Part shown: positions 239-16,815 of the stretch, in pieces | Position numbering within the stretch: the first letter of the stretch is position 1 | Layout: each line of letters opens with the position of its first letter | Source of the DNA: an uncultured bacterium | GTDB taxonomy: Bacteria > Verrucomicrobiota > Kiritimatiellia > RFP12 > CAIWXQ01 | DNA length: 51,451 nucleotides | Assembly: GCA_903861045.1 (NCBI GenBank) | Contig: CAIOST010000339.1 | Location: forward strand, 1-51,451 | Reading direction: 5' to 3' | The notes under the pieces: generated by a model | The model's input: only the letters and a program-made list of their open reading frames with translations | What the model was told of the DNA's origin: nothing | Database searches by the model: none | Translations under genes and position numbers: made by a program

Positions 239-281
239 AGATTAAGACCGGAGATTAAGACCGGAGATTAAGACTGAAGAT
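239..281. repeat. Tandem 13-mer x3.3 (agattaagaccgg)
   Basis: Seen directly: agattaagaccgg agattaagaccgg agattaagactga agat. Noncoding region. Confidence 0.7.
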
Positions 282-295
282 ATCCCATTGCCTTG

Positions 296-371
296 GCTGC
301 GGTCAGTAGCCCCGGCCCGCCTCCGGGCCGAGGGCGGACTGCTATCCCGGGCCGGTAACGATCGTTGTTGG
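296..371. repeat. Copy 2 of the ~70-bp GC-rich element
   Basis: gctgcggtcagtagccccggcccgcctccgggccgagggcggactgctatcccgggccggtaacgatcgttgttgg, direct repeat of 32-107. Confidence 0.6.
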
Positions 372-385
372 AAAAACCTGCCAGT

Positions 386-416
386 TAGGTGCTAGGTGGT
401 AGGTGCTAGGTGGTAG
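386..416. repeat. Tandem 14-mer x2.2 (taggtgctaggtgg)
   Basis: Seen directly: taggtgctaggtgg taggtgctaggtgg tag. Confidence 0.65.
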
Positions 417-704
417 TGACGGGCGGCAGGGATACGCGGAGCAAACATAAACCGCTAATGCACGCAAATGGACGCGAATGCGAGAATTCTTTACAGCGAG
501 GGACGCGAGGGGAGTTTCATGGTACTTGGTTGCTGGCGCCGGGTGGACGTGCGGTGGCATAGGGGGGCAACCGGCAAGGAACCATGGGTTTGGGAATTTC
601 CGCCCTTGGAATTTAGGATTTGTTGCGGATTTCGGTATTCGGATTTCGAGTTTCCGCGACGGACGCAGAGTGCGGCTGGCCCTAACCTACCGTTCTGGTG
701 CCGA

Positions 705-937
705 CTTTCCAGCCGCCTCGACCAGCCGCTTGGCCTGCGCCGTAAGTTTCTGATCCACGGTACGGCCGGTCAGGTGCGGCAGTCGCCCTCGTTGCAACAG
801 CGGGTCGCGCGCATGGCCGCGGAAGCTGCGCACACACCCCTCGCGCACTTCGATGCGCCCTACCACACGGGCCGTCGCCTGTATCCGCAACTCCGCCAGC
901 CGCAACAAGCGCGCTACCGGTGGCGGCAGCGCCCCGA
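705..937 (-). pseudogene. Detached duplicate of the 3' end of mfd (last ~75 codons), left copy of a long direct duplication
   Basis: Translation (ORF 687..908 -) reads ...LRLAELRIQATARVVGRIEVREGCVRSFRGHARDPLLQRGRLPHLTGRTVDQKLTAQAKRLVEAAGKSAPER. The intact Mfd C-terminus at 13537.. reads ...LRLAELRIQATARGVGRIEVREGCVRIFRGHSRDPLLQRGRLPQLTGRTVDQQLTALTKLVEAAGK. DNA identity is about 90% over ~230 bp, with a perfect 54-bp run at 883-936 = 13725-13778. There is no upstream mfd body. Confidence 0.75.
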
Positions 938-982
938 ATGGCCGCCCGTCTCCTATGAACCGGATGAATTGCGAGACTTCCT

Positions 983-1732
983 TTACGATGAAGGTGTTGC
1001 TGCCACCACAGTTATGTTGCGCGTGTTATCAATGCCGCCGAAGACCAGGTGATCCTTTGCCATGTTGGCCAGATCGTCTTTGCGGTTCAACCAGTCAGGC
1101 ATGGCACGGTCGAGCGCCTGCCAGAATTTAGGTCCGTGGTGCTTTTCCATCAGATGAATGAGTTCGTGCATGATGACGTAGTCTATTAACCGAACAGGCA
1201 ACTGAAGAACCCGCCAATTAAACCGAACAATTCCGTTCTTGCTGCACGATCCCCACAGAAACCCAAGATCACCAACCTCAATCTTTTCTGGTTTCCGGGC
1301 GGTATGTCGCGAGAGCCGCTCGACGCGCTGGCTAATCCATTCCGTGCCGGTCTCGAGATACCAGCGACGGAAGTGGGATTCTGCCGGACGGGCATCGCGA
1401 CGCAATGTGAACTGCGTCCCGTCGAATTGTAACGGAAGCGGTTGCTTCGACACAACCTTCAGCCTGAAACGACGCCCCAAATAGCAAAAGCCCTCGCCCG
1501 AAACATATTCCGGTGTGGTTAATCCAGGTGCCACAGATGCTTTTAGCGCCAGTTTACGATATACCCACACCAACTTATTGTTAATCCAGCGGGTGAGATC
1601 TTCGACCGATGTCGCTACGGGAACGTGCGCAACCAATTCAGCGCCACGATCCACCGTTAGCCCCAGCGTCTTGCGACGGGCGCTCCGGCGCACATCAAAT
1701 ACTAAACCATTTAGTTGGACGGTTTCGCTCAT
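983..1732 (-). CDS. YgjP-like (DUF45/M48-family) zinc metallohydrolase, translationally coupled to hsdR
   Basis: HEXXH motif in IMHELIHLMEKHHGPKFW is typical of YgjP/DUF45. Its ATG overlaps the hsdR stop (1729-1732). DUF45 genes commonly follow hsdR. Confidence 0.7.
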   Translation of the reverse strand: MSETVQLNGLVFDVRRSARRKTLGLTVDRGAELVAHVPVATSVEDLTRWINNKLVWVYRKLALKASVAPGLTTPEYVSGEGFCYLGRRFRLKVVSKQPLPLQFDGTQFTLRRDARPAESHFRRWYLETGTEWISQRVERLSRHTARKPEKIEVGDLGFLWGSCSKNGIVRFNWRVLQLPVRLIDYVIMHELIHLMEKHHGPKFWQALDRAMPDWLNRKDDLANMAKDHLVFGGIDNTRNITVVAATPSS

Positions 1733-4700
1733 GAGTTGGTCAGGTTGGAGTGGTTTTCCTTAGCAAGGGCGACGAGACGCTGGGCTAGATCGCGTTCTGT
1801 ACCGGGGCAGCAGATACCGGCGCGGTCGAGATCCCGAACTAAACTCTTGGTCAACAGTTCGCGCATGTCGTCGTTCTTCCAGAAGCCGACTTTACGCACT
1901 TCTTGACGGATGCGCTCTACCATATCCAGTGTAGTCTTAATGGACTTTTCGCGCTGATCCGCATTCTGTTCACGCCCCTTGCCACATTCTTCCAACACAA
2001 GGCGAACGAATGGTACTTGCGCCTTGGCGTCGAGATGCGGGAAATCATTCCGGTCACCCTGGCGTAACTCATCAATATACTTCTTCAGTTCCCGCTCGAG
2101 GGCGTTCCAGTCGTCTTTGAACCGCTGGAGAATCTCCTCCAAGCGCTGGCTCATCTTCCGGGCGTAGGCCGGGTTCTGATTTGAGAAGCCGATGATGTGG
2201 TAGCGGGCGGCGTGTTGCATCTGCGCAGCGCGGGCGCGGCTGCTAGTTTGGGCTTGCAACACCTTTTCAAACTCCGCGTCGGTGATGGCCGTGGGCGGAA
2301 TCTTGGGGTCAACGCCACGCGCCGAAATATGGGCGTTGATGAGCGCCTTTACTTTTTCCGCCACGCCAAATAGATTCAATGACGGGTCGCGATACAAGTT
2401 AGCGGCTACTTTGTTGATGAAGCCTAGCAGTTTGGCGTCGCGAAATACATCGTTCGGCACTTCCGGCCGGTGCTCCAGAATACCCAGCAATTCGTAAAAC
2501 ATGCGCAGTTTGTTAATGAAATCGGCACGTAGCTTCAGGTCTTCAAGCAACTGCACGCAGACATCAACCTGACTCTGCAAATCCGTGATGCCCCGGCCTG
2601 TAAATACCGCGACCGCCCGCGCTCTTCGATCGAGCAATTTGGGCAATTCGACGTTGATGTCAATCAACGCGCCAGCGGTATCATTACCATCGTAATCTTT
2701 AAGCGCGACCTCCAAATGTTGAGCCACACCGATGTAGTCCACCACATAGCCACACTTCTTCTGGCCACAGGTTCGATTCACCCGCGCAATGGCCTGCAAC
2801 AAGTCATGTGCGACGATTTTACGGTCGAGATAAAGCACCTGTTCCACAGGCGCGTCAAAGCCCGTCAGCAACATGTTCATCACAACGAGAATCGTCAGGG
2901 GATCGGTCTTGTCGGTCTTATCCGGAGAAAACTTGCGCTTGAAACGTTTGATGAGTTCCTCTTGTTTACCCTTGTCCGCCCAATCCCACCATGCCTCAGG
3001 ATCGTTATGGTTGCCGGAGAAGACGGCGGCAATCTCCAAGGCGCGAAGCTTGGGCAGTTGCTGATGGATTTGCAGCAGAAACTGCGTCTTGGCATCGAGA
3101 TTATTCGTCTCGTCATCGGTCAACCCCAGCGTGGCGGCAGGTACAGCCTCCAATTCGGAAACCAGTTCCGTCCGCGCCAGCGCAAGTTTATCGAGATAGG
3201 TCATCACCGCCTGCCGGCTCGTGGCTACGATCTGTGCCTTGAAGCCCTCGGGTAAAACCACGCTGGCGAAATGCCGGATCATATCGCGCGCCTTTTGCTC
3301 AATAAGCATAGGCGCCTCCATCACATCGCCTTCGGTCGCATACTTGGCCTTAATAACGGCTAATTCCTTCTGCGTGTATTCACAGAACATATCCTCGAAC
3401 AGGGTGTCGAGGTTGGGCGCGTCCTTGACGATCCCGTCTGCGGTCCGGCCTTCGTAGAGAATCGGCACGGTGGCGCCATCGAGTTCCGCGTCCTGGAGAA
3501 GGTATTTATCAATGTAGTCGCCGAAGATATCTTTCGTCTCCGTCTTTTCACTGTTTAGGATGGGCGTCCCGGTAAAGCCGATGATGGCAGCGTTGGGCAG
3601 CGCTTTGTGGAGGTTGCGATGCAGCGTGCGCGTGTGGGAACGATGCGCTTCGTCCACCAGTACGAGAATTTCCGGAGAATCGTTGAGTAATGGGAATTCC
3701 TCGAACCGAATATTCTCCGTGAAGGTGACGGATTTTTCGACGACTGGCTCGTTGCGGCCTGGCTTCTTCTCCTTGCGAACGATGGTCATGGCCACCTTGT
3801 CGCCGGGTTGATCGCCTGGCTCAGGCAACAGGGCCAGCGCAGCGTCATCCTGCTTGCTGCCAACGGGTTGATACTTTTGCAGCATCGCCATAATGATGTC
3901 CGGCGTGCGTTCGCTGAGCAGGCGTTGGGTCAGAGCCGTCGGTGACTCGCGCGATTTCAAATCCTCGTCTGTCGGACGAACGGCTTCCCCACTCAACTGC
4001 GCTGTCGCGCCAAGTTGGGCCTGCAAGTCCGTGCGGTCGGTCACGACGACAATCTTGAACCGGTTGAGGCGCGGCATCATCCGCATTTTACGCACAAGGA
4101 AGACCATGCTGAGGCTCTTGCCCGAACCTTGCGTGTGCCAGATGATGCCCCCGCGCTGGTCGCGCTCCGCGCCCTGCGCCTTGGTCTGGCCATCCTGTAA
4201 TCTGGCCACGGCCTTGTGAATCGCGCGAAACTGCTGGTAGCGCGCCACCACCTTGCGCGTCTTGCCGTCCACTTGCTGAAACACGGTGAAATTACGGATG
4301 AGATCGAGCAAGTGCGCCGGTCGCAACATGCCGGCGACAAGAATCTGCTGACTCTGCAACGTGGCTCCGAAACCTTCGCGTAAGACATCCGGGCGCTCTT
4401 TGCGATCCCGGAAGAATAGCGGCGTGCCTACCCGGTCGCCATGTTCCGCGCCCAATGTGGCCAATTCCTGGGCGGCTTCTGTCTCGTCCGCGGGCCGGGA
4501 CAACACCCCGAGCTCCTGCGCCACGGTGCTCAATGGCACGGGGCTGGTATCGGCCCATTCCAAATATGCCTCCGGCGGCGCGCCGATGGTCGCCGCTCGC
4601 GACTCAAAGAAATCGCTGGCGATAAGCAACTGGTTGGTATGAAACAGTTTCTCCACGCCCTCGTTCTCGGTGTAGAGCGTGGGGTATATCTCCCGGCGCT

Positions 4701-5262
4701 GGTTGCAATAGCGCAGCAGTTGGTTGATGGCCTCCTGCAACGGGTTCTCTATACCGGGACTTTTGAACTCCGCGACGGACACCGGAATGCCGTTGATGAA
4801 CAGCACCGCATCTGGAATGATGTGGCCACGCCCACTGGTTAGTTCCACCTTGAACTGGTTGATCACGAGAAAATCGTTATTGGCTGGGTTCTCGAAATCT
4901 ATAAAGCAAATGGGCTGCGGGCGGCCGCGTTCCCAGTCCGGCAGGCCTTCCGCCACCGTACCCTTGAGCAAAAGCTGGGTGGCAGCTTGATTGCTCTCCA
5001 TTAACCGGTGTCCGGCAGCCTGCTCCAGATCGCGGATGGCGCGGGCAATGCGCTCGTCATCCAGCCACGGCTGGCCGTCACGCAGGTTGAGTTTGCGAAG
5101 CGCCGCCGCGAGCCGCCCTTTGAGCAAAACCTCACGGAAGTTGGCGCGCTCAGTAAAATCGGGCACGTCCTTGTCGCCCTCAATCCACTGCCAACCCATG
5201 GCCTTGAGTTGCTCGCAGAACGGGCGCTCGGCCAGATCGTATTCCCATTGGATTTTGCTCAT
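1729..5262 (-). CDS. hsdR: Type I restriction enzyme R subunit (HsdR), 1177 aa
   Basis: SF2 helicase motifs: Walker A WHTQGSGKSLSM and DEAH box LVLVDEAHRSH. The N-terminal nuclease region and operon context with hsdM/hsdS also fit. Confidence 0.9.
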   Translation of the reverse strand: MSKIQWEYDLAERPFCEQLKAMGWQWIEGDKDVPDFTERANFREVLLKGRLAAALRKLNLRDGQPWLDDERIARAIRDLEQAAGHRLMESNQAATQLLLKGTVAEGLPDWERGRPQPICFIDFENPANNDFLVINQFKVELTSGRGHIIPDAVLFINGIPVSVAEFKSPGIENPLQEAINQLLRYCNQRREIYPTLYTENEGVEKLFHTNQLLIASDFFESRAATIGAPPEAYLEWADTSPVPLSTVAQELGVLSRPADETEAAQELATLGAEHGDRVGTPLFFRDRKERPDVLREGFGATLQSQQILVAGMLRPAHLLDLIRNFTVFQQVDGKTRKVVARYQQFRAIHKAVARLQDGQTKAQGAERDQRGGIIWHTQGSGKSLSMVFLVRKMRMMPRLNRFKIVVVTDRTDLQAQLGATAQLSGEAVRPTDEDLKSRESPTALTQRLLSERTPDIIMAMLQKYQPVGSKQDDAALALLPEPGDQPGDKVAMTIVRKEKKPGRNEPVVEKSVTFTENIRFEEFPLLNDSPEILVLVDEAHRSHTRTLHRNLHKALPNAAIIGFTGTPILNSEKTETKDIFGDYIDKYLLQDAELDGATVPILYEGRTADGIVKDAPNLDTLFEDMFCEYTQKELAVIKAKYATEGDVMEAPMLIEQKARDMIRHFASVVLPEGFKAQIVATSRQAVMTYLDKLALARTELVSELEAVPAATLGLTDDETNNLDAKTQFLLQIHQQLPKLRALEIAAVFSGNHNDPEAWWDWADKGKQEELIKRFKRKFSPDKTDKTDPLTILVVMNMLLTGFDAPVEQVLYLDRKIVAHDLLQAIARVNRTCGQKKCGYVVDYIGVAQHLEVALKDYDGNDTAGALIDINVELPKLLDRRARAVAVFTGRGITDLQSQVDVCVQLLEDLKLRADFINKLRMFYELLGILEHRPEVPNDVFRDAKLLGFINKVAANLYRDPSLNLFGVAEKVKALINAHISARGVDPKIPPTAITDAEFEKVLQAQTSSRARAAQMQHAARYHIIGFSNQNPAYARKMSQRLEEILQRFKDDWNALERELKKYIDELRQGDRNDFPHLDAKAQVPFVRLVLEECGKGREQNADQREKSIKTTLDMVERIRQEVRKVGFWKNDDMRELLTKSLVRDLDRAGICCPGTERDLAQRLVALAKENHSNLTNS

Positions 5263-6743
5263 GGAACTTTGCGGCCTTTGCTTTGCAACCGTTTTCCAAC
5301 CGCTGTGAGTCTGTAGCTCTGTCGGCTACTTTGCGGTTTGGCAGGAATGGTGCGTTCCAACCAGCCGCCCTCCAGCGCAGGGGCTAAATAGTTCCGTCGG
5401 AAATGCTCACGGTCAGCAAGCTTCAGCCTGGCCTGCAACTTCTCCCTGGACAGCTCCCCCTCAACCACTCGAACGAGCGACTCTACTTCCGGGGTGACTT
5501 CCGGGGTAACTTCCGGGGTGACTTGCGGGGTGACTTGCGGGCTGACTTGCGGGGTGACTTGCGGGGTGACTTGCGGGGTCCGAAAGGTCAGCGTCACCCC
5601 CCGTTCCGCCGTCGAAATCCAAACCGGATCGGGCAGCCCTTGTTTCCGGCACGCCTCCATGATCAGAAAACTCCCCCGTCCCAGTTTCTCCATGAAGCCG
5701 CGCAGGTAGAGCACATGGGCAATGTCGGGGTTGCGCAGGACGGAAAGGTGCCCTTGATGCAACAACGTATCCGGCGTGATGCCCGCCGGAAAGGCTCCGG
5801 AATTCCAGATTTCCAAACGCGTCGGATAGACGTGCACGGCGACTCCGCCCGAGTGCTCGGCGTAATCCCGATGGGCAAAGGCATTGATCAAACCCTCGCG
5901 AATGGCCTCTTCCGGATAGACGCAGGCGTCCTGCCGTTGCGGCTTCTCCTTCGAGAACCGCGCCAGTGTGGGTGTGTTGCGGAGAATGAAAGCGAACAAC
6001 TGGTTGAAGACCGGCATCAGCGGCCCGTCAAAGCTCTTCATGTCCGTAAACTGGTCGCTCGCCTTGTCGTGACTGAACGCCGCAGCCCGCACTCGCACCT
6101 GCGGGAAAACACGCCCCGGTTCGTTGGCAAAAAGCACCACCCCGCCCTGCGTCAACCGGCCAAACTGGGCCAGAGACAGGTCATCCAAAACCGTTTGGGT
6201 GTCGTTCGCATTGCGAAACTGGAACGGCCGGGCCTTCCGGATATCTGCCACGGTCGTCTGCACCTCGACGGTCTCGACATCCGACCCCGTGCCACACGTG
6301 GAGAGGCGTCGCTCCCATCGTTCCGGTTCGGCAGACTTCCGCAACACCATTTCACGGATTTCTGCTGCCCCAGCTTTATGGGTGGCGCTCCCTTCGCGTA
6401 GATAGACCACATCCTCGAAGGCGTATGGCACATCTTTGCCGGCAGGCGCCTCGATCAATACCAGTGCCACACCATCAACCTGCTGCACGCCCACCCACAC
6501 CAGCGCTTTAGGCGAAAGCCTTTCGATCAGCAGTTGCTCCACCCGCCGGGCTTCAGATTCGGCATCCGTAACGCCCACGAGTTTTCCGTTGTCGCCAACA
6601 CCGCAAACCAATGTGCCACCGCCCGCATTCAGAAATCCGCACACCACGCCGCCAATGGCCTTGGGGTTGCCCACGCCAGTCTTGAACTCCACGGCCTGCC
6701 CCTCACCGAGACGAAGCACCTCCCGCAACTTCTCCGCTTTCAC
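5259..6743 (-). CDS. COG2865-type protein: N-terminal AlbA_2/Schlafen-like domain + HATPase_c_4-like domain + TPQV repeat linker + C-terminal wHTH
   Basis: N-terminus GEGQAVEFKTG...GFLNAGGGTLVCGVGDNGKLVGV has the AlbA_2 pattern. EEAIREGLINAFAHRDY...RLEIWNSG has the HATPase_c_4 pattern. It carries 8 tandem TPQV/TPEV repeats. It shares a 4-nt overlap with both neighbours. Confidence 0.7.
   Translation of the reverse strand: MKAEKLREVLRLGEGQAVEFKTGVGNPKAIGGVVCGFLNAGGGTLVCGVGDNGKLVGVTDAESEARRVEQLLIERLSPKALVWVGVQQVDGVALVLIEAPAGKDVPYAFEDVVYLREGSATHKAGAAEIREMVLRKSAEPERWERRLSTCGTGSDVETVEVQTTVADIRKARPFQFRNANDTQTVLDDLSLAQFGRLTQGGVVLFANEPGRVFPQVRVRAAAFSHDKASDQFTDMKSFDGPLMPVFNQLFAFILRNTPTLARFSKEKPQRQDACVYPEEAIREGLINAFAHRDYAEHSGGVAVHVYPTRLEIWNSGAFPAGITPDTLLHQGHLSVLRNPDIAHVLYLRGFMEKLGRGSFLIMEACRKQGLPDPVWISTAERGVTLTFRTPQVTPQVTPQVSPQVTPQVTPEVTPEVTPEVESLVRVVEGELSREKLQARLKLADREHFRRNYLAPALEGGWLERTIPAKPQSSRQSYRLTAVGKRLQSKGRKVP
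5486..5580. repeat. In-frame tandem 12-nt repeat x ~8 (encodes TPQV/TPEV linker) inside the COG2865 gene
   Basis: Plus strand reads cttccggggtga / cttccggggtaa / cttccggggtga / cttgcggggtga ... The unit is a multiple of 3, so copy-number change keeps the frame. Confidence 0.8.
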
Positions 6744-7390
6744 GGTTGGCCTCCCTTCGGGTTGGCAATCACTTTGGACACTTTGACCGGATCGGCGAAG
6801 CTCTCCTTCACAAACGCCTCGACCTCCTGATAGCGGAAGAACTGGGCCGTGGCAAACAATGCCGCATCCTCCGGCTCCTGATATTGCTGCACCCAGTTCC
6901 CCTGCCGCTCGCGTAACGGCCTGTCCGAAAGGATCGCGTCTTCATACATGTCAATCACGCGCAGATCGTCAAGCATGGGCGTCTTCTTCAGGCTCAACCC
7001 CTGCCGCGCCTTCCGATCCGCATAGCCGAGATTCTTCAACAACGCACGCGCAAAGACCACATGGTCATGCGCCAGCACCCAGCGCGGCTTCTTCAACGCG
7101 ACGGCCTTGCGCAACTCCTGATGCGTAATGGAAAGCGCCCCCGGTCGATCCTCCTTGCCGCTGCCATAATTCGGCGTGACCAACCCCAGGAACAAATCGC
7201 ACTTCTCCACCGCCACCAGGCAATTCTCGAACGCCGACCGGTTCGAAAACACCGGCATGGTCCCCTTGTGCGACATCCAGACTTCGTACCCATAGGCCGT
7301 CAGCAACGTGTACAAACGGTTCAGCAACTCCTCGATGCCATAGACCGAGGAGGAGACCATGATGACCAGCTTGTCTCGTTTCGCACTCAT
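6740..7390 (-). CDS. DUF4062-like domain protein (216 aa from Met at 7390; alternative start 7480 gives 246 aa and a 20-nt overlap with the upstream gene)
   Basis: KLVIMVSSSVYGIEELLNRL...CDLFLGLVTPNYGSG...SITHQELRKAVALKKPRWVLAH matches the remembered DUF4062 consensus (vFiSSTf.DL..eR...gRYGs..giSyTe.Ey..A...gkp.l.fl). Its stop overlaps the COG2865 start. Confidence 0.55.
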   Translation of the reverse strand: MSAKRDKLVIMVSSSVYGIEELLNRLYTLLTAYGYEVWMSHKGTMPVFSNRSAFENCLVAVEKCDLFLGLVTPNYGSGKEDRPGALSITHQELRKAVALKKPRWVLAHDHVVFARALLKNLGYADRKARQGLSLKKTPMLDDLRVIDMYEDAILSDRPLRERQGNWVQQYQEPEDAALFATAQFFRYQEVEAFVKESFADPVKVSKVIANPKGGQP

Positions 7391-7460
7391 GGGAGTAGAT
7401 CCGTTCCAGGAGCAAGTGTGGCAAAGTGGCGTTTTGTGGTAAAGCTTATCCGCACGAGAA

Positions 7461-9320
7461 TCACGCCTCTTTCCCCTCATTGGCGTTAATCAACTGACCG
7501 AGATGAAAACCCTTCCAGCAAAGATGCACAATCAACCACCAAAGATAGACGGAAGATGCCTGGTAAAAACCACCTTCCGGCAGGAGGCCATGGGCAGATT
7601 CGTTTCGCAAATTATGCCCGAACCTCTCGATCAATAGACCGCGCAAGTCAAACAGGATGTTAGCACCAATGATTCTTTCGACATCCGGGATCCATAGCAA
7701 TTGGTTCAAGTCACGTTCCTGTTGTGTGCCATCCGAATCCAGCGTTGAGGTAATGATCCCATATTGATTCAACACATGTCGAATGGATGCTTCAACCTGC
7801 GGAATCAGCAAATGGAGCGCGGTTAACCAGTCGCCAAAGAACCCGGCCTGGATGCCGCGCAGATAAATCCCCTCGTGCCCTGGCGGAATGAAAGGGTTGT
7901 TTGTCACGAAGAAGATTAAGTCGCGATGACGAATCACGTGTTCGTCGACTATTGCGTAACGCGCAGGTTCGATATACCATACCGCATGCATGGGCCAGTT
8001 GAGCGTTCGCGCCTGTTGGCAAAGTCGCTTACGCAAGGCCTCCTTTTCCTCTTCTGGATTACCAACGCCTGCGGCAGGAACCGTGTCAGCGACTTTTCCA
8101 TCGTGGTCGATAGATGAAGCACCGGCAATTTTATCGAAGATGGTATTCTTGGTAGCTTCTTGGTGCTGCTGTTGAAGTTTCTCGACATCTGTAGGCTGTG
8201 TGACATTGGCAAACCGTACGAGTGCCGTCTGAAAATCATGCCCACGAACATGGGCAGCCGAACGTTCCTGCGTCACCCTTTCAGCTTCAACAAACTCAGG
8301 ATTCGACAAACTGTCAATCTTGATTGTAGTCAACTCTGACAGGCTTTGCTTCTGCAGTGCAAGGAACCGCCGATGAACGGTTTTGATGCGTTCAGGATTG
8401 GCCTTGGCGCGTCGCAAGGCTTCAACACCCCGACCAACCCAATAAGATGCAAACATGGCACCTTGTGTCGCCAGTCCCTCTTCACCACGGGAAACATTGC
8501 ACTCAGCAGCAGCCAATAGACATGCCTGCGCTTCGGTCTCCTTCTTGGCTACTCGATGCCACTGTTCCGCAAGTAGCCAATACGCCTCCGCAACATGCCA
8601 GTCTTCAGCATCCGCAAACCGCTTGGCCAAACGCTCGGACAATGCCGCGTAATGAACTGCGTCTCCCTCCTTAAGGCCCAACAGTGCCAACATGAGATGA
8701 TGGCAAAGCAACCCTGCCTTTGTGTTGTTCTCATATTCAACGATCGCGGCCTCTAAAGCAGCAACCACCGTTTTTCGTTCCGTTTCGAAACCGCGAATAG
8801 CGGAAATTTGCGCCGCGCGCTCCAAACGTTCAACGTAGGGAGGCCAGAGATCGTCAGTCTTAAGACGCTCGGATGCTTGCAGAAAAGCCAAGATGGCAAT
8901 ACGAGCAGCCTTGAAGTCCTTCTTGGTCACCCAGAGTACATCGGCAACACGTGCACGAAATTCCGGGTCTTGAATCTCTTCCACGATCCCGCTAAGTGCG
9001 GCAAGATCGTCTTCGCACAAATCCTCCGCATTCAGCGTCCTCTTGCCGTTGAAACCGCTCCACATCGAGCCGTATGGATTTCCTCGAATATCGTAATTCG
9101 GGTAGAACGAGGCAACGACGTTGAGAAATGAAAAGACGCGAAACCCCAGGTCGTCTTTCGCGGTCGTACATTCCCTCGCTGCGGCAGTAAAGCCTTCACA
9201 GAGCCCGTAACACTCTTTGTTCTTTGCCTGCCACACCCGAGACTGCCAATCGCTTCGACGCAGATCGTCTGCCGTTACGCCAAAACTGGATTGTTTCGTT
9301 TCGCCCATGTCAAACAACAC
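7461..9320 (-). CDS. 619-aa protein with C-terminal HEPN-type motif (Rx4HG; NLR...HG as in DUF4209); N-terminal ~500 aa unassigned
   Basis: C-terminus reads ...RFGHNLRNESAHGLLPEGG... It overlaps the hsdS stop by 11 nt. Codon usage and composition are typical of real genes here. Confidence 0.55.
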   Translation of the reverse strand: MLFDMGETKQSSFGVTADDLRRSDWQSRVWQAKNKECYGLCEGFTAAARECTTAKDDLGFRVFSFLNVVASFYPNYDIRGNPYGSMWSGFNGKRTLNAEDLCEDDLAALSGIVEEIQDPEFRARVADVLWVTKKDFKAARIAILAFLQASERLKTDDLWPPYVERLERAAQISAIRGFETERKTVVAALEAAIVEYENNTKAGLLCHHLMLALLGLKEGDAVHYAALSERLAKRFADAEDWHVAEAYWLLAEQWHRVAKKETEAQACLLAAAECNVSRGEEGLATQGAMFASYWVGRGVEALRRAKANPERIKTVHRRFLALQKQSLSELTTIKIDSLSNPEFVEAERVTQERSAAHVRGHDFQTALVRFANVTQPTDVEKLQQQHQEATKNTIFDKIAGASSIDHDGKVADTVPAAGVGNPEEEKEALRKRLCQQARTLNWPMHAVWYIEPARYAIVDEHVIRHRDLIFFVTNNPFIPPGHEGIYLRGIQAGFFGDWLTALHLLIPQVEASIRHVLNQYGIITSTLDSDGTQQERDLNQLLWIPDVERIIGANILFDLRGLLIERFGHNLRNESAHGLLPEGGFYQASSVYLWWLIVHLCWKGFHLGQLINANEGKEA

Positions 9321-10548
9321 CTTCCGGCACCCTCACACGACCGGTGAGCAGGTCGGTCATCAGGCCGGATTTCAGTTGTTGGAGCTTCCTTAACTCAACC
9401 TCTTCCGACGCAATCGTAGCTTCAGAAGCGAGCATAGCGTTGGCCGCCGTTCGTTGCTCCTCGCTTGGCGGAACTGCAATCTTTAGTCTTTTGAAATACG
9501 GGAGACCAATCGTCTTGATGGTGCTGCCCATCGCAATCGCCTCAAACTGCGGCTTGTTGTGCTGAAGCCAGTAATACAGAAAGAGGTTGTACAGCCGTTT
9601 TCCGCACCGCCACGCCATGAAATGCTGACTGACCGCCATTTCCTCGGCGAGTATCGCACTCTTCCCGATTCCAGCATCACGGGACAGAATGACAGTTCCG
9701 GCCGAGTGCTTCACGGCTGACGAGTTCTCGATTCCGAGTTCGCTGATTTGCTTGTCAGTCTCTGAGATGTAAATGCGGTCGAGTTTGTCTGAGTCAGCCA
9801 ACGACACCCACTTGATGCCCCCATCCCAACAAGAGGGGACATCTTTAGTCGGCGTATGGCCGCTGCCACGGAGGGCGACATCGTCTAAAAGACAAATATC
9901 CCAGTCCTTCGGGAGTTGGCCGAGGGGGGAGTCTTGGAATTGTTCGGGGTGGGCGATGGGGTCGCGGAGTTGGCCGTTGTGGTCGAGGCCGCGGGTGAGG
10001 AGATCGTGGAGCAGGCCGGCGCGCACCTGCCGCAACTTCGCAATCACGGCCTCCGTCTTCGCAATCGCGTCGTCTACCGTGTCCAGAACGGTGGCGATGC
10101 GGGATTGCTCGATTTCTGAAGAAGGTTTGAAAACCCAATGACGTTTCAAGTCGTTCCAGGACGTGCGCGGCATCTTGGTACCAACCCCGGTTGCCGACGC
10201 AGCGGCAAATACGCGCTCCCATTGAAAAACATGGGCGGCATATTGTGGAAGGACACCGTTGCGAGCTCGTAGCACAAGGATATCTGTTGAGCAGTAACCA
10301 GAGAACGGGGCTTTCAGGCTTTTTCGAAGATTTGGTCGGAGTTTGCCAAACAGAATGTCGTCCTTGGAAAAGCAGGAGTTTATGCTGACCGAAGCACTGC
10401 TGGGCAAAGAACCCAGCAAGTGGGGTTGGCCTTGCGCAATGTGCTCAAGTCCGATGTAACGGAGACTCGGGTCTTTGTTGCTTGCAACCTTTTCTGGTCG
10501 CAGTTCAACCAGTGCATCGAGACCGACTGTGGGAGGGCACGCACTCAT
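9310..10548 (-). CDS. hsdS: Type I R-M specificity subunit (HsdS), two target-recognition domains
   Basis: 412 aa with a bipartite repeat structure and conserved central and C-terminal helices (…LRQVRAGLLHDLLTRG…, …LQQLKSGLMTDLLTGRV). Its ATG overlaps the hsdM stop. Confidence 0.85.
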   Translation of the reverse strand: MSACPPTVGLDALVELRPEKVASNKDPSLRYIGLEHIAQGQPHLLGSLPSSASVSINSCFSKDDILFGKLRPNLRKSLKAPFSGYCSTDILVLRARNGVLPQYAAHVFQWERVFAAASATGVGTKMPRTSWNDLKRHWVFKPSSEIEQSRIATVLDTVDDAIAKTEAVIAKLRQVRAGLLHDLLTRGLDHNGQLRDPIAHPEQFQDSPLGQLPKDWDICLLDDVALRGSGHTPTKDVPSCWDGGIKWVSLADSDKLDRIYISETDKQISELGIENSSAVKHSAGTVILSRDAGIGKSAILAEEMAVSQHFMAWRCGKRLYNLFLYYWLQHNKPQFEAIAMGSTIKTIGLPYFKRLKIAVPPSEEQRTAANAMLASEATIASEEVELRKLQQLKSGLMTDLLTGRVRVPEGVV

Positions 10549-13205
10549 CTGTAGGACAATGCCTCCAAGAAAGTCTCCAGATTAGATTCAGCACTTGCAC
10601 GTTCTGAGCGCAGAGCAGTCAACGTCACCCGATACTTGTCCCAAAGACCCTCAATGTAACGCACCAACTCGTGCCGTTTCTCGGCCACGGCGGCGTCGAG
10701 GCCGACCTGCACATCCTGCGCGAAGAGTTCGAGGACGAGGTCGCGTTTCTCGGTGTCGTCGAATCCGGTACAGCGCAGTTTGAGTTCGTTCACAAACTCC
10801 GCGGTGAGCGTGCGGAAAAGGGCGCGGGCTTCGGCGAGTTGTTCCTTGATCGTTTCGTGGGGGACGAGGGCCATTTCGAATGCGGCCAGTTGATCGAGGA
10901 TCGGCTGGAGTTTGCGCTTTAACTCGTTTGACGTGGCAACGGGTTTGCGGACGGCGCGGAGCGCCGTCCCTACCTTTCGTTCCCGCTCCTGTTTGGAAAG
11001 CTCCTTGAGATCGGCCTTGTGCTCGGCCTTGAGTTCGCGGATCTGCCGCTCGATATCTTTGGGGTAGTTCCAGTTCTCCAATTCCTCCTCGTCGAGGTCG
11101 TCGGGCACGTTGCTCTGCTCGAAGGCTTCCTTCTCGCCCTTGAGCCGGGCGATGTCGGACTTGGCGGCGGCGATGCGTTCCAGATAGTCGGTCATGGTGC
11201 GACGGACGAGCTTGTGCGCGAAGGGGTCGAGCACCGGGCCGGCGGCTTCGTCGTCTTCCACGGCGTCGGCGATGGCGTCCACCCAGCCGTCTATGACGCC
11301 AGGGAAGCCGTTTTCGAGCAGGGTCTTGAAGTCAGGGAGCGTGTCGGTCCACCAGGTGGCGATGACGCCGGCGAGTTTGAAGCGATCGAGGGTGTTCAAG
11401 GGCAGCAGCGCGGCGACAAAGGTTTCGAGGAACTCGGCGCGAACCTTGTTGAGCTTGCGATGTTCGGGCAGTTTGGCCAGACGCGGGGAGTGTTCTGCCC
11501 ACCACTGTCCCAGGTGTTGGCGCACGGTCGCAAGGGTCTTTTGAACCCCGGGATCGCTTTCGACCAGCGGGCGGATGGCGGCGCGTTCCGGGAGCGCGGG
11601 GGCGAAGTCGTAGTAGAGCGTGTCGCCTGTGCGCTTGGCGAAGGCGTGGGAAGGCTTGAAGCCGAGGGCGTCGAACAACGCACGGTTGTCCGTCACCTCA
11701 GCCACGGGCACGCCGCCAAGTAGGTGGGCGCGCACGTCGTGCGGCTCTGGTGGTGGGGAGTTGTCCACGTAGCGGCGGATGTTAAGATTGAAATCGTTGG
11801 CTTCGCTGGCGATTTCGGTGAGGGGGACAACGCGGGCGTAGCCGGGGATATCCTGATAGTTATCGAAGGTGGAGACAACCTTTTCGACGTGCTCCGGGCG
11901 GAGGTAGTTTTGCGCGCGGCCAGCATGGAACTCGGCGTCCGCATTGATGAACAGCACCTTGCCCCGACGTTCGGCGGGCTTTTTCGCGTTAGGTGCGTGA
12001 CCGGTGAGGTTGGGGCGCATGATGAGAATACACGCCGGAATGCCCGCGCCGTAGAACAGATTCTGGGGCAAGCCGATGACGGCCTCGATGAGGTCCTGTT
12101 CGAGGAACTTTCTGCGGATCTCCTTTTCCGCCCCGCCGCGAAAGAGCACGCCGTGAGGCATGACCGTGGCAACCATGCCGCCTGGCTTACAGACGGCAAG
12201 CATGTGCTGGGCGAACATGAGGTCGCCCTTCTTGCCGGAGGTTGGACACCAGCCCCAGCGGAAACGCTCGGGAAACTCCATGTTGTTGCGCGTGTAGTTC
12301 TGGCTGAAAGGCGGATTGGCGATGACACGGTCGAATCGTTCCAGTTCGCCAGCATCCTTATGCAGCGGGTGCAGCAAAGTGTCCTGAAGTTGAATATCTG
12401 CGCCGGTGACGCCGTGCAGGAGCATATTCAATTTACAGATGGACCAAGCCGAGGCGTCGTTAACCTGGCCGCAGAGGCGAAGGTTGGTGGGGTCGCCACC
12501 GGATTGCTCGATGAACTCGCGGCTGATGATAAGCATGCCGCCCGAACCGCAGGTGGGGTCATAGACAGATAGGCCGGGCGCGGGTTTGAGGATACGCACC
12601 ATGAGACGGATGACATCGCGCGGCGTGTAGAAATCTCCACCCTTTTTGCCCGCCGACTCGGCGAAATTGTTGATGAGGAACTCGTAGGCCGCGCCCAGCA
12701 GGTCGGAGAACTGAAAATCCTCATTGCGCAGCCTGTAGCGGCTAAAGATACGGCTGACCAGGTCTTTGCAACAGTCGTCCGAAACGATGCGTTTGCCGCT
12801 CTCGACGGCCATGAAGAAGATACGATCGAGGACATGCTCCAACTGCGGGTTGGATTCGCGGAGCGCCGCGAGCGCTTTGTCAAGGACCGAGCCATACACT
12901 ACGTTGGCGTCGCCTAGTTTGTCCTTGAGGTAACCCCATCGAGCGCAATCGGGGACAAAGAAACCATCGTAGTAATCAGGATTTTCGCCGTACTGTTTCT
13001 CCGCTGCATCTTTCACCATGCCTTGTTCGACCTTCCGGCCGACAATATTCTCGCGTTCGGCCTCAAAGACGTCCGAACACCGCTTCAGGAAAAGCATGCC
13101 GAAGATGTAATCCTTGTAAGTGGCCGCATCGAGTCCCTCCTGGCGAAGTCGGTCAGCAGCCGACATGAGATGTCGTTCGAGTTTGGCGAGGGAAAGGCGT
13201 GGCAT
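10545..13205 (-). CDS. hsdM: Type I R-M N6-adenine DNA methyltransferase subunit (HsdM), unusually long (886 aa) with ~350-aa C-terminal coiled-coil extension
   Basis: HsdM_N-like start (ERHLMSAADRLR...YKDYIFGMLFLKRCSDVFE), SAM motif DPTCGSGGML and catalytic NPPF (IANPPFSQ). Confidence 0.88.
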   Translation of the reverse strand: MPRLSLAKLERHLMSAADRLRQEGLDAATYKDYIFGMLFLKRCSDVFEAERENIVGRKVEQGMVKDAAEKQYGENPDYYDGFFVPDCARWGYLKDKLGDANVVYGSVLDKALAALRESNPQLEHVLDRIFFMAVESGKRIVSDDCCKDLVSRIFSRYRLRNEDFQFSDLLGAAYEFLINNFAESAGKKGGDFYTPRDVIRLMVRILKPAPGLSVYDPTCGSGGMLIISREFIEQSGGDPTNLRLCGQVNDASAWSICKLNMLLHGVTGADIQLQDTLLHPLHKDAGELERFDRVIANPPFSQNYTRNNMEFPERFRWGWCPTSGKKGDLMFAQHMLAVCKPGGMVATVMPHGVLFRGGAEKEIRRKFLEQDLIEAVIGLPQNLFYGAGIPACILIMRPNLTGHAPNAKKPAERRGKVLFINADAEFHAGRAQNYLRPEHVEKVVSTFDNYQDIPGYARVVPLTEIASEANDFNLNIRRYVDNSPPPEPHDVRAHLLGGVPVAEVTDNRALFDALGFKPSHAFAKRTGDTLYYDFAPALPERAAIRPLVESDPGVQKTLATVRQHLGQWWAEHSPRLAKLPEHRKLNKVRAEFLETFVAALLPLNTLDRFKLAGVIATWWTDTLPDFKTLLENGFPGVIDGWVDAIADAVEDDEAAGPVLDPFAHKLVRRTMTDYLERIAAAKSDIARLKGEKEAFEQSNVPDDLDEEELENWNYPKDIERQIRELKAEHKADLKELSKQERERKVGTALRAVRKPVATSNELKRKLQPILDQLAAFEMALVPHETIKEQLAEARALFRTLTAEFVNELKLRCTGFDDTEKRDLVLELFAQDVQVGLDAAVAEKRHELVRYIEGLWDKYRVTLTALRSERASAESNLETFLEALSYR

Positions 13206-13536
13206 GGTTTTACTACCTGTATGCGATATGTGCGGGCGTTACCGGCGGGAACTGCTAGATCTTGGTTCTTCCATCATTACGAAAACGCCATGCGAGTACG
13301 AACGATGATCGCGATCGTTGGTCGGCTGCGCCTGTTCCAACCACAGATTCCAGAAGCGCGTATTGATTGATAAGAAAGGCGCTTTCGTCAAACCCCGATC
13401 GGCCTCGGCCCACGCGGGCCGAAAACATGCCGGAAACGGTCAGGCGCAACGATGCCTTGGGAAGGAGCATGGCAGAAGCGGGGAGAAACGTCAAGATCAC
13501 CACCAACCAGCGCTTTGGGACGGACGGAGTAGGCCC

Positions 13537-16500
13537 CTACTTTCCCGCCGCCTCGACCAGCTTGGTCAGCGCCGTAAGTTGCTGATCCACGGTGCGGCCG
13601 GTCAGTTGCGGCAGTCGCCCGCGTTGTAACAGCGGATCGCGCGAATGGCCACGGAAGATGCGCACACACCCTTCGCGCACTTCGATGCGCCCTACCCCAC
13701 GGGCCGTCGCCTGAATCCGCAACTCCGCCAGCCGCAACAAGCGCGCTACCGGTGGCGGCAGCGCCCCGTAACGATCCGCCAACTCCTGCTGTAACTGCCG
13801 CACTTCCGCCACCTTTACCAGCTCCGCCAGCCGCCGGTGCAGCGCAAAGCGCTGCGCATCGTCTTCCACATACTGGTACGGCAGACACGCGGAGCGCGCC
13901 GCATCTGGCGTGCCGGGTGACAAATCAATAAAATCAAGGCGCAGATCCACATCGACCAGCGCCGGTGGCTGCTCCCCCTGCAAACGGGCCACGGTGCGCC
14001 GTAGCAACTGGCAATAGAGGCCAAAACCAATCGCGGCAATGTGGCCGCTTTGCGCCGACCCCAGTAGGTTCCCCGCCCCACGGATCTCCAGGTCGCGCAT
14101 GGCCAGGCCGAAACCGGCCCCCAGCGCACTATGCTTCTGCATGGCCGCCAGTCGCTGCCGACCATCCGCATCCACATGCCCCTGCTCCGGCAGCAACAGG
14201 TACGCAAACGCCTTGTGCGAAGAGCGCCCCACCCGCCCGCGCAACTGATAGAGATCCGCCAGCCCGAAACGATCCGCCCGGTGAATCAGAATCGTGTTGG
14301 TCCGCGGAATGTCCAAACCACTCTCGACAATCGTCGTGCAGAGCAGCACATCGCACGCCCCCGCCTCAAAATCACGCATGATTCCGGCGAGCTGCGTGGA
14401 GGACATCTGCCCATGCGCCACGGCCACACGCGCCTCCGGCACCACCCGTTCCAGCCGCGCCCGCATCAAGTCAATGCTGAGTACCCGGTTGTACAAGAAG
14501 AAGACCTGCCCCTCGCGGTTGAGCTCCTGGAGGATCGCCGAGCGGATCACCGCATCGGTATCGCGGACCACGCGCGTCTCCACGGCCAGGCGCTCCTGCG
14601 GCGGCGTTTGCAACAGGCTCATATCGCGGGCGCCGGTCATACTCTGGTAGAGCGTACGCGGAATGGGCGTGGCGGTTAGCGTCAGCACATCCACCAGTTG
14701 CCGCACCTGCTTGAGATACTCCTTGTGCGCCACGCCAAAGCGCTGCTCTTCGTCGATCACCAGCAGCCCCAGATCGCGGAAGGCCAACCCCGGCTGCAGC
14801 AGCGTATGCGTGCCGATCACAATATCCACGCCGCCCTCTGCCAGCGCCAGCATCACGCGCCGCCGCTCGGCCTGGGTGCGGAAGCGGCTCAAGACCTCGA
14901 TGCGGATCGGATAGGCGGCCATGCGCTCGCGGAACGATTCGTAGTGCTGTTCCGCCAGCACCGTGGTCGGCACCAGCACCGCCACCTGCTTGCCATTCAT
15001 CACGGCAATAAACGCCGCGCGCATGGCGATCTCGGTCTTGCCATACCCCGCATCGCCGCAGATCAGGCGGTCCATGGGGCGGTTCGACGCCAAGTCCGCC
15101 TTGATCTCGGCAATCACCTTTTCCTGGTCCACCGTTTCGCGATAAGGAAAAGCCGCCTCGAAGGCCTGCATCCAGGACGGATCGGTCTGATACGCAAACC
15201 CCGGACGCAACTGGCGCCGCGCCTGCGTCTCCAGCAGAGAAGCCGCCAGATCCTGGATGGCGCGCTCGGCCTCGGCCTTTTCGCGCAGCCAGCGCCGTCC
15301 GCCCAAGCGGTGTAACGGCGGTGGTTGACCAGCCACACTGACATAGCGGCTCAGCAGCGAGGCATGCGCCACCGGCACATGCAACCGCGCCCCCTCGGCG
15401 TATTCCAGCGTCATGACCTCGCTGCGCCGGCCATCCATCTCGATCTCGGTGACGCCGGCATAGCGCCCCAGGCCATGATCGAGGTGCACCACCAGATCGC
15501 CCGGCGTCAGCTCGCCCAGGGACTCCACGCGCGGTCCGCGTGCCGGTGCCGCCGCCGTGGTCGCGGGCAGATAGCGCCGGCCGGATTGCTTACGTACCGC
15601 ATAGAGATCGGACTGCGTGGCGACGGTTAAATGCGCCGCCGGCAGCACAAAACCACCCGACAAGCGCGCATGCTGCACGCGCACCGGTGCCGCCGCACCC
15701 AGCTCGCGGACGAGTTGTTCACAAGCCCCCGCCGTATCCATGCAGAGTGCCACGGTCTCGCCAGCCGCGCCGCGCCGCGTTAATTCGGCCAGCAGCCGTT
15801 GCCGCACCATGGCGCTGACTTCCGGATGGTGCCAATCAGCTACATCCGCCAACCCCGCAATGGGCGCGAGTGCCAGCGGCAGCGAGGGCGTGGCCGGTGG
15901 CGGCGGATCGCCACAGAAAAGTTCCAGGACCGGCCGCCGGGCGGCGACGTGTTGCTGTAACTGATCCCAATCCAGCAGCTTGTCATCACCCGCCACGCGC
16001 TCTGCCGCAAACTGCCGCACCTGATCATGCGCCAGCCAGATCACGACCGACCCTTCGGGGAGCAGGTCCGCCAGCAGTACCTCCGGCAGGGCCGCGACGC
16101 GGCAGGGCGGCACCCAGGCCTCCTCGCGCTTTTCCACGGAGCACTGCGTGCCCGGATCAAACACGCGCAGCGATTCCAGCGTATTGCCAAAAAACTCCGC
16201 GCGCAGTGGCAGCGGCGCAGTCAGCGGCCAGACATCCAGCAGCCCGCCCCGCACGGCCAGTTCGCCTTTGGCGGTGACCTCGGCCACGCGCGCAAACCCG
16301 CCTGACACGAGGCGCTCTACCAGTTCATCAAACGCGAACTCCGCGCCCACGTGCAAGGAGACGGCCGCGCGCTCCACCGCCAGTGGGTCCGGCACAGACT
16401 GCTGGAGCGCCAGCACACAGGTGGCCAGCAGCGTGGCGCCGGCTGGAGCCGTCGCGTGCTGACGCAGGGCCTGCAGCGTGGCAAAGCGGATACCGGCCAG

Positions 16501-16815
16501 CTCGGGATCCGATAGCGGATCACCCCCTTCGATGGCTGGGAAGAAGAGCGGCTCGCGGCCGGTTTCGCGCCCCAGCGTCAGTAGGTCGGCATGCAGCGCC
16601 TCTAGCTCCTGTGGGCCCGGCGCGACCACCAGCACGGCCCCTAGCGGATGCTGCCGTCCCAGCGACAGGGCGGTCAGGGCGGCTGCCGCCCCCGGCAGGT
16701 GCGGGGCTGCCAGACGCGCTGCCGGCGCCGCGCGCAAAGCGGCCCGCAGCACTTCGTCAAAACTATCCAGCAAAGCTGTGGCAGGTGGCGACATACGACG
16801 GAATGGTAGCACCAT
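13537..16815 (-). CDS. mfd: Transcription-repair coupling factor Mfd (1092 aa)
   Basis: SF2 helicase motifs (LICGDAGYGKTEIAMRAAF; DEEQRFGV) and a TRG/CarD-like region. Length is typical. Start may be the internal Met at 16794. Confidence 0.9.
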   Translation of the reverse strand: MVLPFRRMSPPATALLDSFDEVLRAALRAAPAARLAAPHLPGAAAALTALSLGRQHPLGAVLVVAPGPQELEALHADLLTLGRETGREPLFFPAIEGGDPLSDPELAGIRFATLQALRQHATAPAGATLLATCVLALQQSVPDPLAVERAAVSLHVGAEFAFDELVERLVSGGFARVAEVTAKGELAVRGGLLDVWPLTAPLPLRAEFFGNTLESLRVFDPGTQCSVEKREEAWVPPCRVAALPEVLLADLLPEGSVVIWLAHDQVRQFAAERVAGDDKLLDWDQLQQHVAARRPVLELFCGDPPPPATPSLPLALAPIAGLADVADWHHPEVSAMVRQRLLAELTRRGAAGETVALCMDTAGACEQLVRELGAAAPVRVQHARLSGGFVLPAAHLTVATQSDLYAVRKQSGRRYLPATTAAAPARGPRVESLGELTPGDLVVHLDHGLGRYAGVTEIEMDGRRSEVMTLEYAEGARLHVPVAHASLLSRYVSVAGQPPPLHRLGGRRWLREKAEAERAIQDLAASLLETQARRQLRPGFAYQTDPSWMQAFEAAFPYRETVDQEKVIAEIKADLASNRPMDRLICGDAGYGKTEIAMRAAFIAVMNGKQVAVLVPTTVLAEQHYESFRERMAAYPIRIEVLSRFRTQAERRRVMLALAEGGVDIVIGTHTLLQPGLAFRDLGLLVIDEEQRFGVAHKEYLKQVRQLVDVLTLTATPIPRTLYQSMTGARDMSLLQTPPQERLAVETRVVRDTDAVIRSAILQELNREGQVFFLYNRVLSIDLMRARLERVVPEARVAVAHGQMSSTQLAGIMRDFEAGACDVLLCTTIVESGLDIPRTNTILIHRADRFGLADLYQLRGRVGRSSHKAFAYLLLPEQGHVDADGRQRLAAMQKHSALGAGFGLAMRDLEIRGAGNLLGSAQSGHIAAIGFGLYCQLLRRTVARLQGEQPPALVDVDLRLDFIDLSPGTPDAARSACLPYQYVEDDAQRFALHRRLAELVKVAEVRQLQQELADRYGALPPPVARLLRLAELRIQATARGVGRIEVREGCVRIFRGHSRDPLLQRGRLPQLTGRTVDQQLTALTKLVEAAGK
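13725..13778. repeat. Perfect 54-bp direct repeat (second copy at 883..936), candidate recombination core inside mfd
   Basis: atccgcaactccgccagccgcaacaagcgcgctaccggtggcggcagcgccccg is identical at both sites. Flanking homology decays towards the mfd 3' end. Confidence 0.8.

Follow-up and report, generated by a model that had tools for sequence, protein, structure and literature searches.

The duplicated mfd tail

The 3' end of the mfd gene, which encodes the transcription-repair coupling factor, is present twice in a contig of an uncultured Kiritimatiellia bacterium (RFP12; CAIWXQ01), on either side of a 12.6-kb gene block containing a type I restriction-modification (R-M) system. The contig (CAIOST010000339.1 of the assembly GCA_903861045.1; forward strand) was analyzed in its entire length of 51,451 nt and is referred to below as the window; its left end lies approximately 700 bp beyond the left copy of the mfd tail. 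The left and right copies are designated L and R, and a third, detached copy of the mfd tail, found on other contigs, is designated L2. The features of the duplication are listed below.

13537–16815, minus strand: mfd (transcription-repair coupling factor), intact open reading frame (ORF) of 1092 aa (Pfam UvrB_inter, CarD_TRCF_RID, DEAD, Helicase_C, TRCF)
13539–13768, minus strand: R, right copy of the duplicated tail, part of the working mfd (repeat search, alignment)
13715–13768, no strand: right 54-bp run (exact match)
13206–13538, no strand: spacer upstream of hsdM, whose junction-side bases carry the TAG now ending mfd (13537–13539); no integrase remnant
937–982, no strand: island-side spacer of 46 bp between the ygjP stop codon and the remnant, with no significant similarity to mfd (alignment)
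687–936, minus strand: L, detached remnant of the mfd 3' tail; 707–936 are duplicated in R, and 687–706 are the probable ancestral terminus (SAPER and TAG), absent from R (alignment, translation)
883–936, no strand: left 54-bp run (mfd-internal end of the repeat; exact match)
1–686, no strand: non-coding spacer downstream of L, up to the contig end, with tandem repeats and elements resembling repetitive extragenic palindromes (REP-like); its ORFs have no Pfam match

A search of the first 18.5 kb of the window revealed one long pair of direct repeats (713–936 and 13545–13768; 224 nt without gaps, 91% identity, spacing 12,832 bp) and no second pair of comparable size, so that this repeat is far beyond chance. 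Gapped alignment in the MAFFT program widened it to approximately 705/707–936 and 13537/13539–13768, with a single 3-bp indel. The original prediction had placed direct repeats of about 90% identity at 705–937 and 13537–13769, which agrees with the length of approximately 230 bp and the identity of about 91% obtained here. At the mfd-internal end of the repeat, the two copies are identical over 54 bp (883–936 and 13715–13768), and this 54-mer is present at just these two sites in the window. The length of the run had been predicted correctly, but its right copy had been put at 13725–13778, a slip of 10 nt that clashes with the offset between the two repeats in the same prediction.

Each of the two junctions was recovered again in assemblies made independently from several samples (L001–L004 and a 42.8-kb contig running from mfd through the island to the remnant), at an identity of 99.98–100% and with one 1-nt gap. 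These junctions of the integrated state are the only ones that the contigs carry. The duplication and insertion structure is real and not an assembly artefact. A truncated Mfd of 1022 aa (P0244) was considered as a variant and rejected. It comes from the same strain and carries a 1-nt deletion in the 54-bp run (L073 9987–10059, corresponding to 13768–13695 of the window), 51 bp from the contig end; this deletion is probably an assembly error at the repeat.

When translated in the mfd frame, L reads ...GALPPPVARLLRLAELRIQ...AAGKSAPER*. Its homology to mfd ends abruptly at 936/937, beyond which the sequence continues up to position 983, where the ygjP-like gene has its stop codon. Since the homology stops at this point, L represents a detached fragment, as had been predicted, and not a second mfd paralogue. 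A further, more diverged mfd-like arm of L upstream of 936 was ruled out by local alignment against shuffled sequences, because the adjoining 90 nt score no better than the shuffles (776 of 2000 reach the score).

L and R are separated by 8 synonymous and 7 non-synonymous changes; dS is about 0.15, and the ratio of non-synonymous to synonymous substitution rates (dN/dS) is about 0.35. In L, some conserved hydrophobic positions have changed radically, and there is an insertion that keeps the frame. When the L/R differences were polarised with the nearest species (L023 and L005), they divided 7 versus 5, with 3 ambiguous; synonymous sites were uninformative in this comparison (dS above 1).

A third tail copy and the meaning of the 54-bp run

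L2 was found as an 86-aa "hypothetical protein" (P0243) in the 90%-identity cluster of Mfd. It is encoded at positions 10000–10263 of the 28-kb contig L071 (19469–19732 of L074) and is also present in L078. In L071 it lies approximately 30 bp past the stop codon of a gene for an adhesin-like protein of 1833 aa, downstream of a gene of glycoside hydrolase family GH123. The 28-kb block additionally encodes FGE-sulfatase-like proteins, GH43-related and GH4 glycoside hydrolases and two LacI-family regulators, and its GC content is host-like. Contigs with L2 and contigs of the window come from the same five samples, and all of them have NCBI records as well. It is therefore very probable that L2 is part of the genome, or at least the population, that the window represents. 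Joining an L2 contig to the left end of the window was tried and rejected: the two share only a region of short motifs with 78% identity (L078 19899–19976 and window 203–275), and the terminal ORF looks spurious.

The mfd homology of L2 extends approximately 16–37 nt further upstream than that of L (4 of 2000 in the shuffle test). At the other end, both L and L2 have a homologous extension past AAGK, consisting of (S/T)APER, TAG and a few more bases, whereas R loses homology after AAAG and is immediately followed by TAG. Because two independent detached copies agree in this extension, the longer (S/T)APER terminus is probably ancestral, and the working mfd would be five codons short, with its stop codon at the junction. 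This changes the view that the right copy is the true mfd 3' end and that the stop of the left copy has shifted. R does belong to an intact ORF of 1092 aa with all the domains, but its end is probably not the original one, and the polarity of the shift is probably the reverse.

As for nucleotide differences, R and L differ at 0 of 54 positions in the core and at 15 of 176 positions in the rest of the tail, plus the indel, and R and L2 differ at 6 of 54 and 6 of 176 positions, respectively. The unique variable sites number 13 in L (all in the tail), 10 in L2 (6 of them in the core) and 1 in R. Thus, tail divergence is 3.4% between R and L2 versus 8.5% between R and L, while the order in the core is the opposite (Fisher p 0.037 for the heterogeneity of L2). 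No single tree fits both core and tail, and the three known mfd-tail copies are mosaics of each other.

The 54-bp block is probably meaningful, though the statistics are not overwhelming. Fisher's test of core versus tail (0/54 versus 15/176) gives p 0.025. Under uniform decay at the 8.5% divergence of the tail, zero differences in 54 bp have p 0.008, and permutation of the 15 differences gives p 0.015 for a run of at least 54 bp at that end, but p 0.24 for such a run anywhere. In the original prediction the 54-bp core was regarded as the crossover site. After a single-crossover integration, whether of the Campbell type or by an integrase, the duplicated segment compares the parental alleles throughout, and the crossover point creates no identity; identity is either a precondition of recombination or a product of heteroduplex repair or gene conversion. 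Since the core is the most diverged part of L2 (6/54) while the L2 tail is close to R (6/176), we interpret the block as probably recording homologous exchange or gene conversion among the tail copies rather than as a fixed att core. With these p values and the reverse pattern in L2, a crossover site in the core is weakly supported and not established.

The similarity of L and L2 continues into the DNA downstream of both, where collinear blocks in the same relative orientation were detected, namely a 31-nt block (90% identity) and a 64-nt REP-like element (97% identity). The elements of this spacer are as follows.

368–398, no strand: 31-nt block, found also just past the L2 stop codon (sequence match)
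31–93 and 295–357, direct; 156–191, inverted; L071 10440–10503, no strand given: REP-like elements of 63/64 nt with an internal GC-rich palindrome (repeat search)
239–274 and 386–416, no strand: 13-bp and 14-bp tandem repeats (repeat search)

The whole collection used for motif comparison comprised 81 loci and the window, and in it the REP-like 34-mer was found only downstream of L and L2. Because the collinear downstream blocks are common to both, L and L2 are two copies of the mfd tail together with its downstream spacer. All assemblies break 350–700 bp to the left of L, within the spacer of REP-like and short tandem repeats. At 204–275 this spacer contains a motif array (AGATTAAGACCGG x2.8) with an inverted partner, and at 386–416 the motif TAGGTGCTAGGTGG is repeated x2.2. 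In one related locus, a TCTTAATC-type array, judged by eye, follows the mfd stop codon (L048 10140–10165).

The island, its genes and related genomes

The DNA between the repeats (937–13538; 12,602 bp), referred to as the island, has all its genes on the minus strand, reading on from mfd in the order hsdM, hsdS, three accessory genes, hsdR and ygjP.

10545–13205, minus strand: hsdM, type I methyltransferase, 886 aa (Pfam, PADLOC)
9310–10548, minus strand: hsdS, type I specificity subunit (Pfam, PADLOC)
7461–9320, minus strand: candidate defence gene PDC-S39, with DUF7380 and DUF4209 (PADLOC PDLC05011, E 9.5e-160; Pfam)
6740–7480, minus strand: accessory DUF4062 gene; in public assemblies 216 aa, 6740–7390 (Pfam)
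5259–6743, minus strand: accessory gene with Schlafen/AlbA_2, HATPase_c_4 and Fic-like_C domains, 494 aa (Pfam)
1729–5262, minus strand: hsdR, type I restriction subunit, 1177 aa (Pfam HSDR_N, SWI2_SNF2, T1R_D3-like; PADLOC REase_I)
983–1732, minus strand: YgjP-like metal-dependent hydrolase, the last gene of the island (Pfam PF01863, E 8.5e-48)

According to the Pfam and PADLOC analyses, hsdR, hsdM and hsdS lie in one co-directional cluster, as required of a type I R-M system. The GC content of the island is 0.569 versus 0.623 for the rest of the contig. GC content at third codon positions (GC3) is 0.54–0.63 in ygjP, PDC-S39 and hsdS versus 0.73–0.79 in most housekeeping genes (0.68 in MdoG); two island genes have host-like values (HsdM 0.75, DUF4062 0.79). 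Tetranucleotide distances in the three 4-kb windows within the island (1–12,000) are 0.24–0.37 versus 0.13–0.19 in later windows. Outside the island the gene content of the contig is ordinary (V-type ATPase, TRAP transporter, SmpB, TGT, LepA, tRNA-Lys, MdoG). Between the genes for the aldolase and YkuD there are 52 nt (18068–18119) that match the terminal 52 nt of the contig (51400–51451) with 90% identity, which indicates that the right contig end also lies inside a repeated element.

HsdM has many relatives with identities of 75–88%, three of which bear source names that belong to different phyla or families (Lindowbacteria, Acidobacteria, Competibacteraceae). The examined relatives with 83–88% identity have the layout hsdM-hsdS-(variable genes)-hsdR in common, and ygjP follows hsdR in the one whose DNA extends that far. 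In these operons the slot between hsdS and hsdR, corresponding to 5259–9320 of the window, holds other small genes (a 190-aa gene; 79-aa and 266-aa genes), which points to a variable cargo position inside the operon. In addition, the Schlafen-like gene of the window contains a 12-bp in-frame tandem repeat (5485–5579; 7.9 copies, 93% matches) encoding TPQV/SPQV/TPEV tetrapeptides between the HATPase_c_4 and Fic-like_C domains; this repeat could vary in length.

The genomes used for comparison were 62 species-genome loci around mfd, and the mfd tail could be located in 48 of them, with 10 kb downstream of each. The closest relatives of the Mfd tail are metagenome-assembled genomes (MAGs) of Kiritimatiellia/Lentisphaerae, with amino acid identity of up to 81% among the species-level genomes and up to 83% among the proteins of the protein collection. 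R-M genes follow mfd in 0 of the 62 loci, and the island proteins have no match in them; the single match obtained was to YkuD, which is encoded outside the island. A second mfd tail within 10 kb was found in 0 of the 48 relatives, each of which has a single copy. The 700 bp to the left of the remnant have no match in the nearest genomes (81% Mfd identity). In the nearest relative (L023, identical with L067), the genes next to mfd are Pyr_excise and then an M20 peptidase gene, and both of these are absent from the window and from the L2 contigs. No island-free allele was found in the 90%-identity cluster of Mfd proteins, and a metagenome scan with the 101-aa Mfd tail, in which chance pattern matches dominated, yielded one irrelevant match (28%) and no island-free close relative. 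From the deviant composition, the absence from relatives and the occurrence of HsdM relatives elsewhere, it follows that the island is accessory and horizontally acquired, and in its present form it is without its own recombinase. The prediction that the genes between the copies are accessory is thus confirmed by GC, GC3, tetranucleotides and the absence from the 62 related loci.

The search for a recombinase also bore out what had been expected of the island itself. None of the ORFs scanned on the 51-kb contig, island included, matched an integrase, resolvase or transposase family in the Pfam and PADLOC scans; to the left, this contig ends approximately 700 bp from L. Comparison of the 331-bp spacer upstream of hsdM with the integrase of an HsdM relative of 83% identity gave nothing significant. 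No tRNA gene was found near the island, and Rfam and promoter/terminator scans of the junction regions returned nothing. In the above HsdM relative (L068 8614–9791; also L069 and L070), a tyrosine integrase split into ORFs of 178 aa and 208 aa is located directly upstream of hsdM. The operon of L068–L070 is 81–82% identical at the nucleotide level to that of the window over hsdM and hsdR-ygjP. Within 10 kb in L068, neither att-like repeats at the flanks nor a tRNA could be found.

Direct repeats at the mfd stop codon were also sought by self-comparison of the 48 related loci, using as controls the stop codons of every other ORF with 250 aa or more in these loci, spurious ORFs included. Such repeats touch the mfd stop codon in 4 of 48 loci versus 15 of 644 control stops (Fisher p 0.036), an enrichment that is a lead and falls short of a finding. 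In L023, the gene for the 147-aa Pyr_excise (pyrimidine-dimer glycosylase) is flanked by direct repeats of approximately 105 nt (10750–10858 and 11425–11531), one beginning exactly with the mfd TAG and the other exactly with the TAG of this gene, which looks like a small insertion with target duplication. In L048, a 22-nt identical run is present in the last codons of mfd and 630 bp downstream, in frame with its own stop codon (10108–10136 and 10737–10766), and the insert is non-coding. Repeats of approximately 110 nt surround a 471-aa ORF in L043 (9449–9561 and 11130–11242), and 34-nt repeats including TAG surround a 313-aa RAYT-like ORF in L042 (8389–8422 and 9443–9475; model NF047646 for REP-associated tyrosine transposases, 52.7 bits, below the cut-off of 80).

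Origin of the duplication

The explanation that we prefer, with a probability of roughly 0.5, is entry of the R-M block without a site-specific recombinase, either by insertion with a long duplication of the target or by homologous recombination through the mfd tail. A horizontally acquired block of 12.6 kb would have inserted into the mfd tail, duplicating approximately 230 bp of the target. R keeps mfd open and ends at the junction, with a stop codon that would be new, and L is a dead remnant that probably keeps the older terminus and the spacer. The homologous route would involve either Campbell-type integration of a circle with an mfd-tail fragment or a double crossover from an island-bearing relative. 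A perfect repeat of 54 bp is long enough for occasional RecA-dependent recombination. The direct repeat present here could permit precise RecA-dependent loss of the island, which would restore mfd with an L-type tail, and the lost island would be a circle that could use this homology to enter another mfd again.

Several observations weigh against this explanation. The divergence of the repeats outside the 54-bp run (8.5%) is above that of most published cases and needs either age or an imported foreign tail. The dN/dS of L versus R would suit a foreign allele that was once functional as well as an old remnant that is decaying or partly refreshed by conversion, and leaves the route undecided. 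The contigs do not fix the position of L2 relative to mfd. A single mfd tail was found in 48 of 48 relatives, but these are only up to 81–83% identical and their left flank is unalignable, which limits the empty-site comparison. Finally, the contig end just to the left of L leaves room for a recombinase gene further left.

The same data bear on other origins. The duplication may be older than the R-M genes, so that a paralogous tail with its spacer pre-existed and the R-M block landed between the copies or replaced earlier cargo through recombination of the flanks. L2, which with its collinear spacer adjoins non-R-M genes of host-like GC in the same five samples, agrees with such an order of events, as do the restriction of the REP-like 34-mer to the DNA downstream of L and L2 and the direct repeats over the mfd stop codon that flank small unrelated inserts in several relatives. 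We nevertheless regard it as rather doubtful, since the homology of L begins exactly at the island edge with 54 perfect base pairs, which is simplest if the junction formed together with the island; moreover, no contig has both repeats at these boundaries around other cargo, and repeats at mfd stops are only weakly enriched, relative to controls that include spurious ORFs. An integrase-mediated island would require an attP with an mfd-like replacement tail and crossover in the 54-bp core, the integrase having been lost or lying past the contig end in a larger composite. The architecture is as expected for such an island, with an intact gene carrying a diverged tail beside it and the displaced original tail at its far end, and there is an att-like identical core of 54 bp together with a restored target gene (the intact Mfd ORF). 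The split Phage_integrase directly upstream of hsdM in L068–L070 and the unassembled region to the left of the remnant also speak for it. This origin is improbable all the same: neither an integrase nor its remnant was found in the island, the 331-bp spacer or the 51-kb contig; the R tail, five codons short of the L/L2 terminus, provides no full-length replacement end; the supposed core is the most diverged segment in L2, whose upstream boundary lies approximately 16–37 nt from that of L; and L068 itself is without flanking att-like repeats or tRNA.

A duplication in place that then underwent uniform neutral decay, with no later recombination and with the 54-bp run left by chance or coding constraint, is very unlikely. 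A run of at least 54 bp anywhere is not rare (p 0.24), and L is pseudogene-like in its radical changes at hydrophobic positions and its in-frame insertion; against this stand the low probabilities of zero differences in 54 bp (p 0.008) and of a run at that end (p 0.015), the fact that a dead copy is under no constraint, the reverse heterogeneity in L2 (Fisher p 0.037) and the failure of any single tree to explain core and tail. A chimeric join at the repeated 54-mer during metagenome assembly is scarcely credible. Contigs of several assemblies do break in or near the repeat, one of them with a 1-nt core deletion near its end (L073, L076), but identical junctions at 99.98–100% in independent assemblies from different samples, including the 42.8-kb contig, argue against it. 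A broader idea, which we consider a long shot, is that the mfd tail and stop codon in Kiritimatiellia and relatives are a recurrent recombinase-free capture site with duplications of 22, 34, approximately 105–110, 230 and possibly >300 bp, the tails of which then keep exchanging by gene conversion. Its cargo, proposed just as speculatively, would include approximately 630 bp of non-coding DNA, a pyrimidine-dimer glycosylase gene, a RAYT-like gene and the 12.6-kb R-M island. If true, it would suggest that the mechanism of insertion is a general one, linked to the mfd end rather than to R-M systems.

Insertion of R-M genes with long target duplication is reportedly described by Nobusato et al. 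(2000). In the survey of Furuta, Abe and Kobayashi (2010; PMC2853133), R-M units of types I–IV without mobility genes lay between direct repeats of 46 to about 420 bp with 93–99% identity, and identity typical of att sites was treated as 30 bp or less. In one of these cases, unrelated genes interrupt a type I M-S-R operon, and the repeat overlaps the 3' end of a gene. An invade-amplify-release cycle was proposed there, with the statement that release lacks experimental demonstration (PMC2853133); the scheme of loss and re-entry through the 54-bp repeat, set out above for entry without a recombinase, matches this cycle. By the measures of that survey, the mfd island has restriction and modification genes inside an insert of 12,602 bp (<20 kb) and a direct duplication of approximately 230 bp (>30 bp), and mobility genes were found neither in the island nor in the 38 kb to its right, the contig ending 700 bp to the left. 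The island resembles this class in these respects, for the mobility genes as far as the contig extends, and in its deviant GC content. It differs from the published cases in that the repeat is almost wholly coding and 8.5% diverged outside the perfect 54 bp, most published pairs having 93–100% identity, in the third tail copy elsewhere in the population, in the lack of an empty-site genome and in its source, a Kiritimatiellia MAG from a phylum outside that survey.

Islands integrated by integrases at the 3' ends of tRNA, tmRNA or protein genes are similar in that the gene is kept intact by a diverged tail, the displaced tail lies at the far end and the cargo is low-GC defence DNA. Unlike them, the mfd island has no integrase that could be found, a repeat far longer than att identity, a tail five codons short and a core that is not conserved in L2. 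The hsd locus of Escherichia coli is also called the immigration control region. The mfd island is like the allelic turnover of E. coli hsd loci (cited in PMC2853133) in that a type I operon behaves as a replaceable, homology-driven cassette beside housekeeping genes, with a variable gene slot between hsdS and hsdR among relatives; those loci are without target duplication, whereas here one homology flank is a duplicated gene fragment.

Insertion of an R-M unit with long target duplication at the mfd 3' end, as originally predicted, thus holds as an assignment to a class, of which the mfd island is a further example, while the exact route of entry is not settled by it. The island opens no new question by itself, and the three-way mosaic of the tail copies is a modest twist. 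The case also warns against taking the longest identical block between flanking repeats for the crossover of integration. It adds, for a phylum that has been little studied, a clean case in which a type I R-M and defence island without its own recombinase lies in the tail of a housekeeping gene. The three mosaic mfd tails suggest that long duplications are not passive scars but may keep recombining, which bears on how such islands would be lost, regained and swapped.

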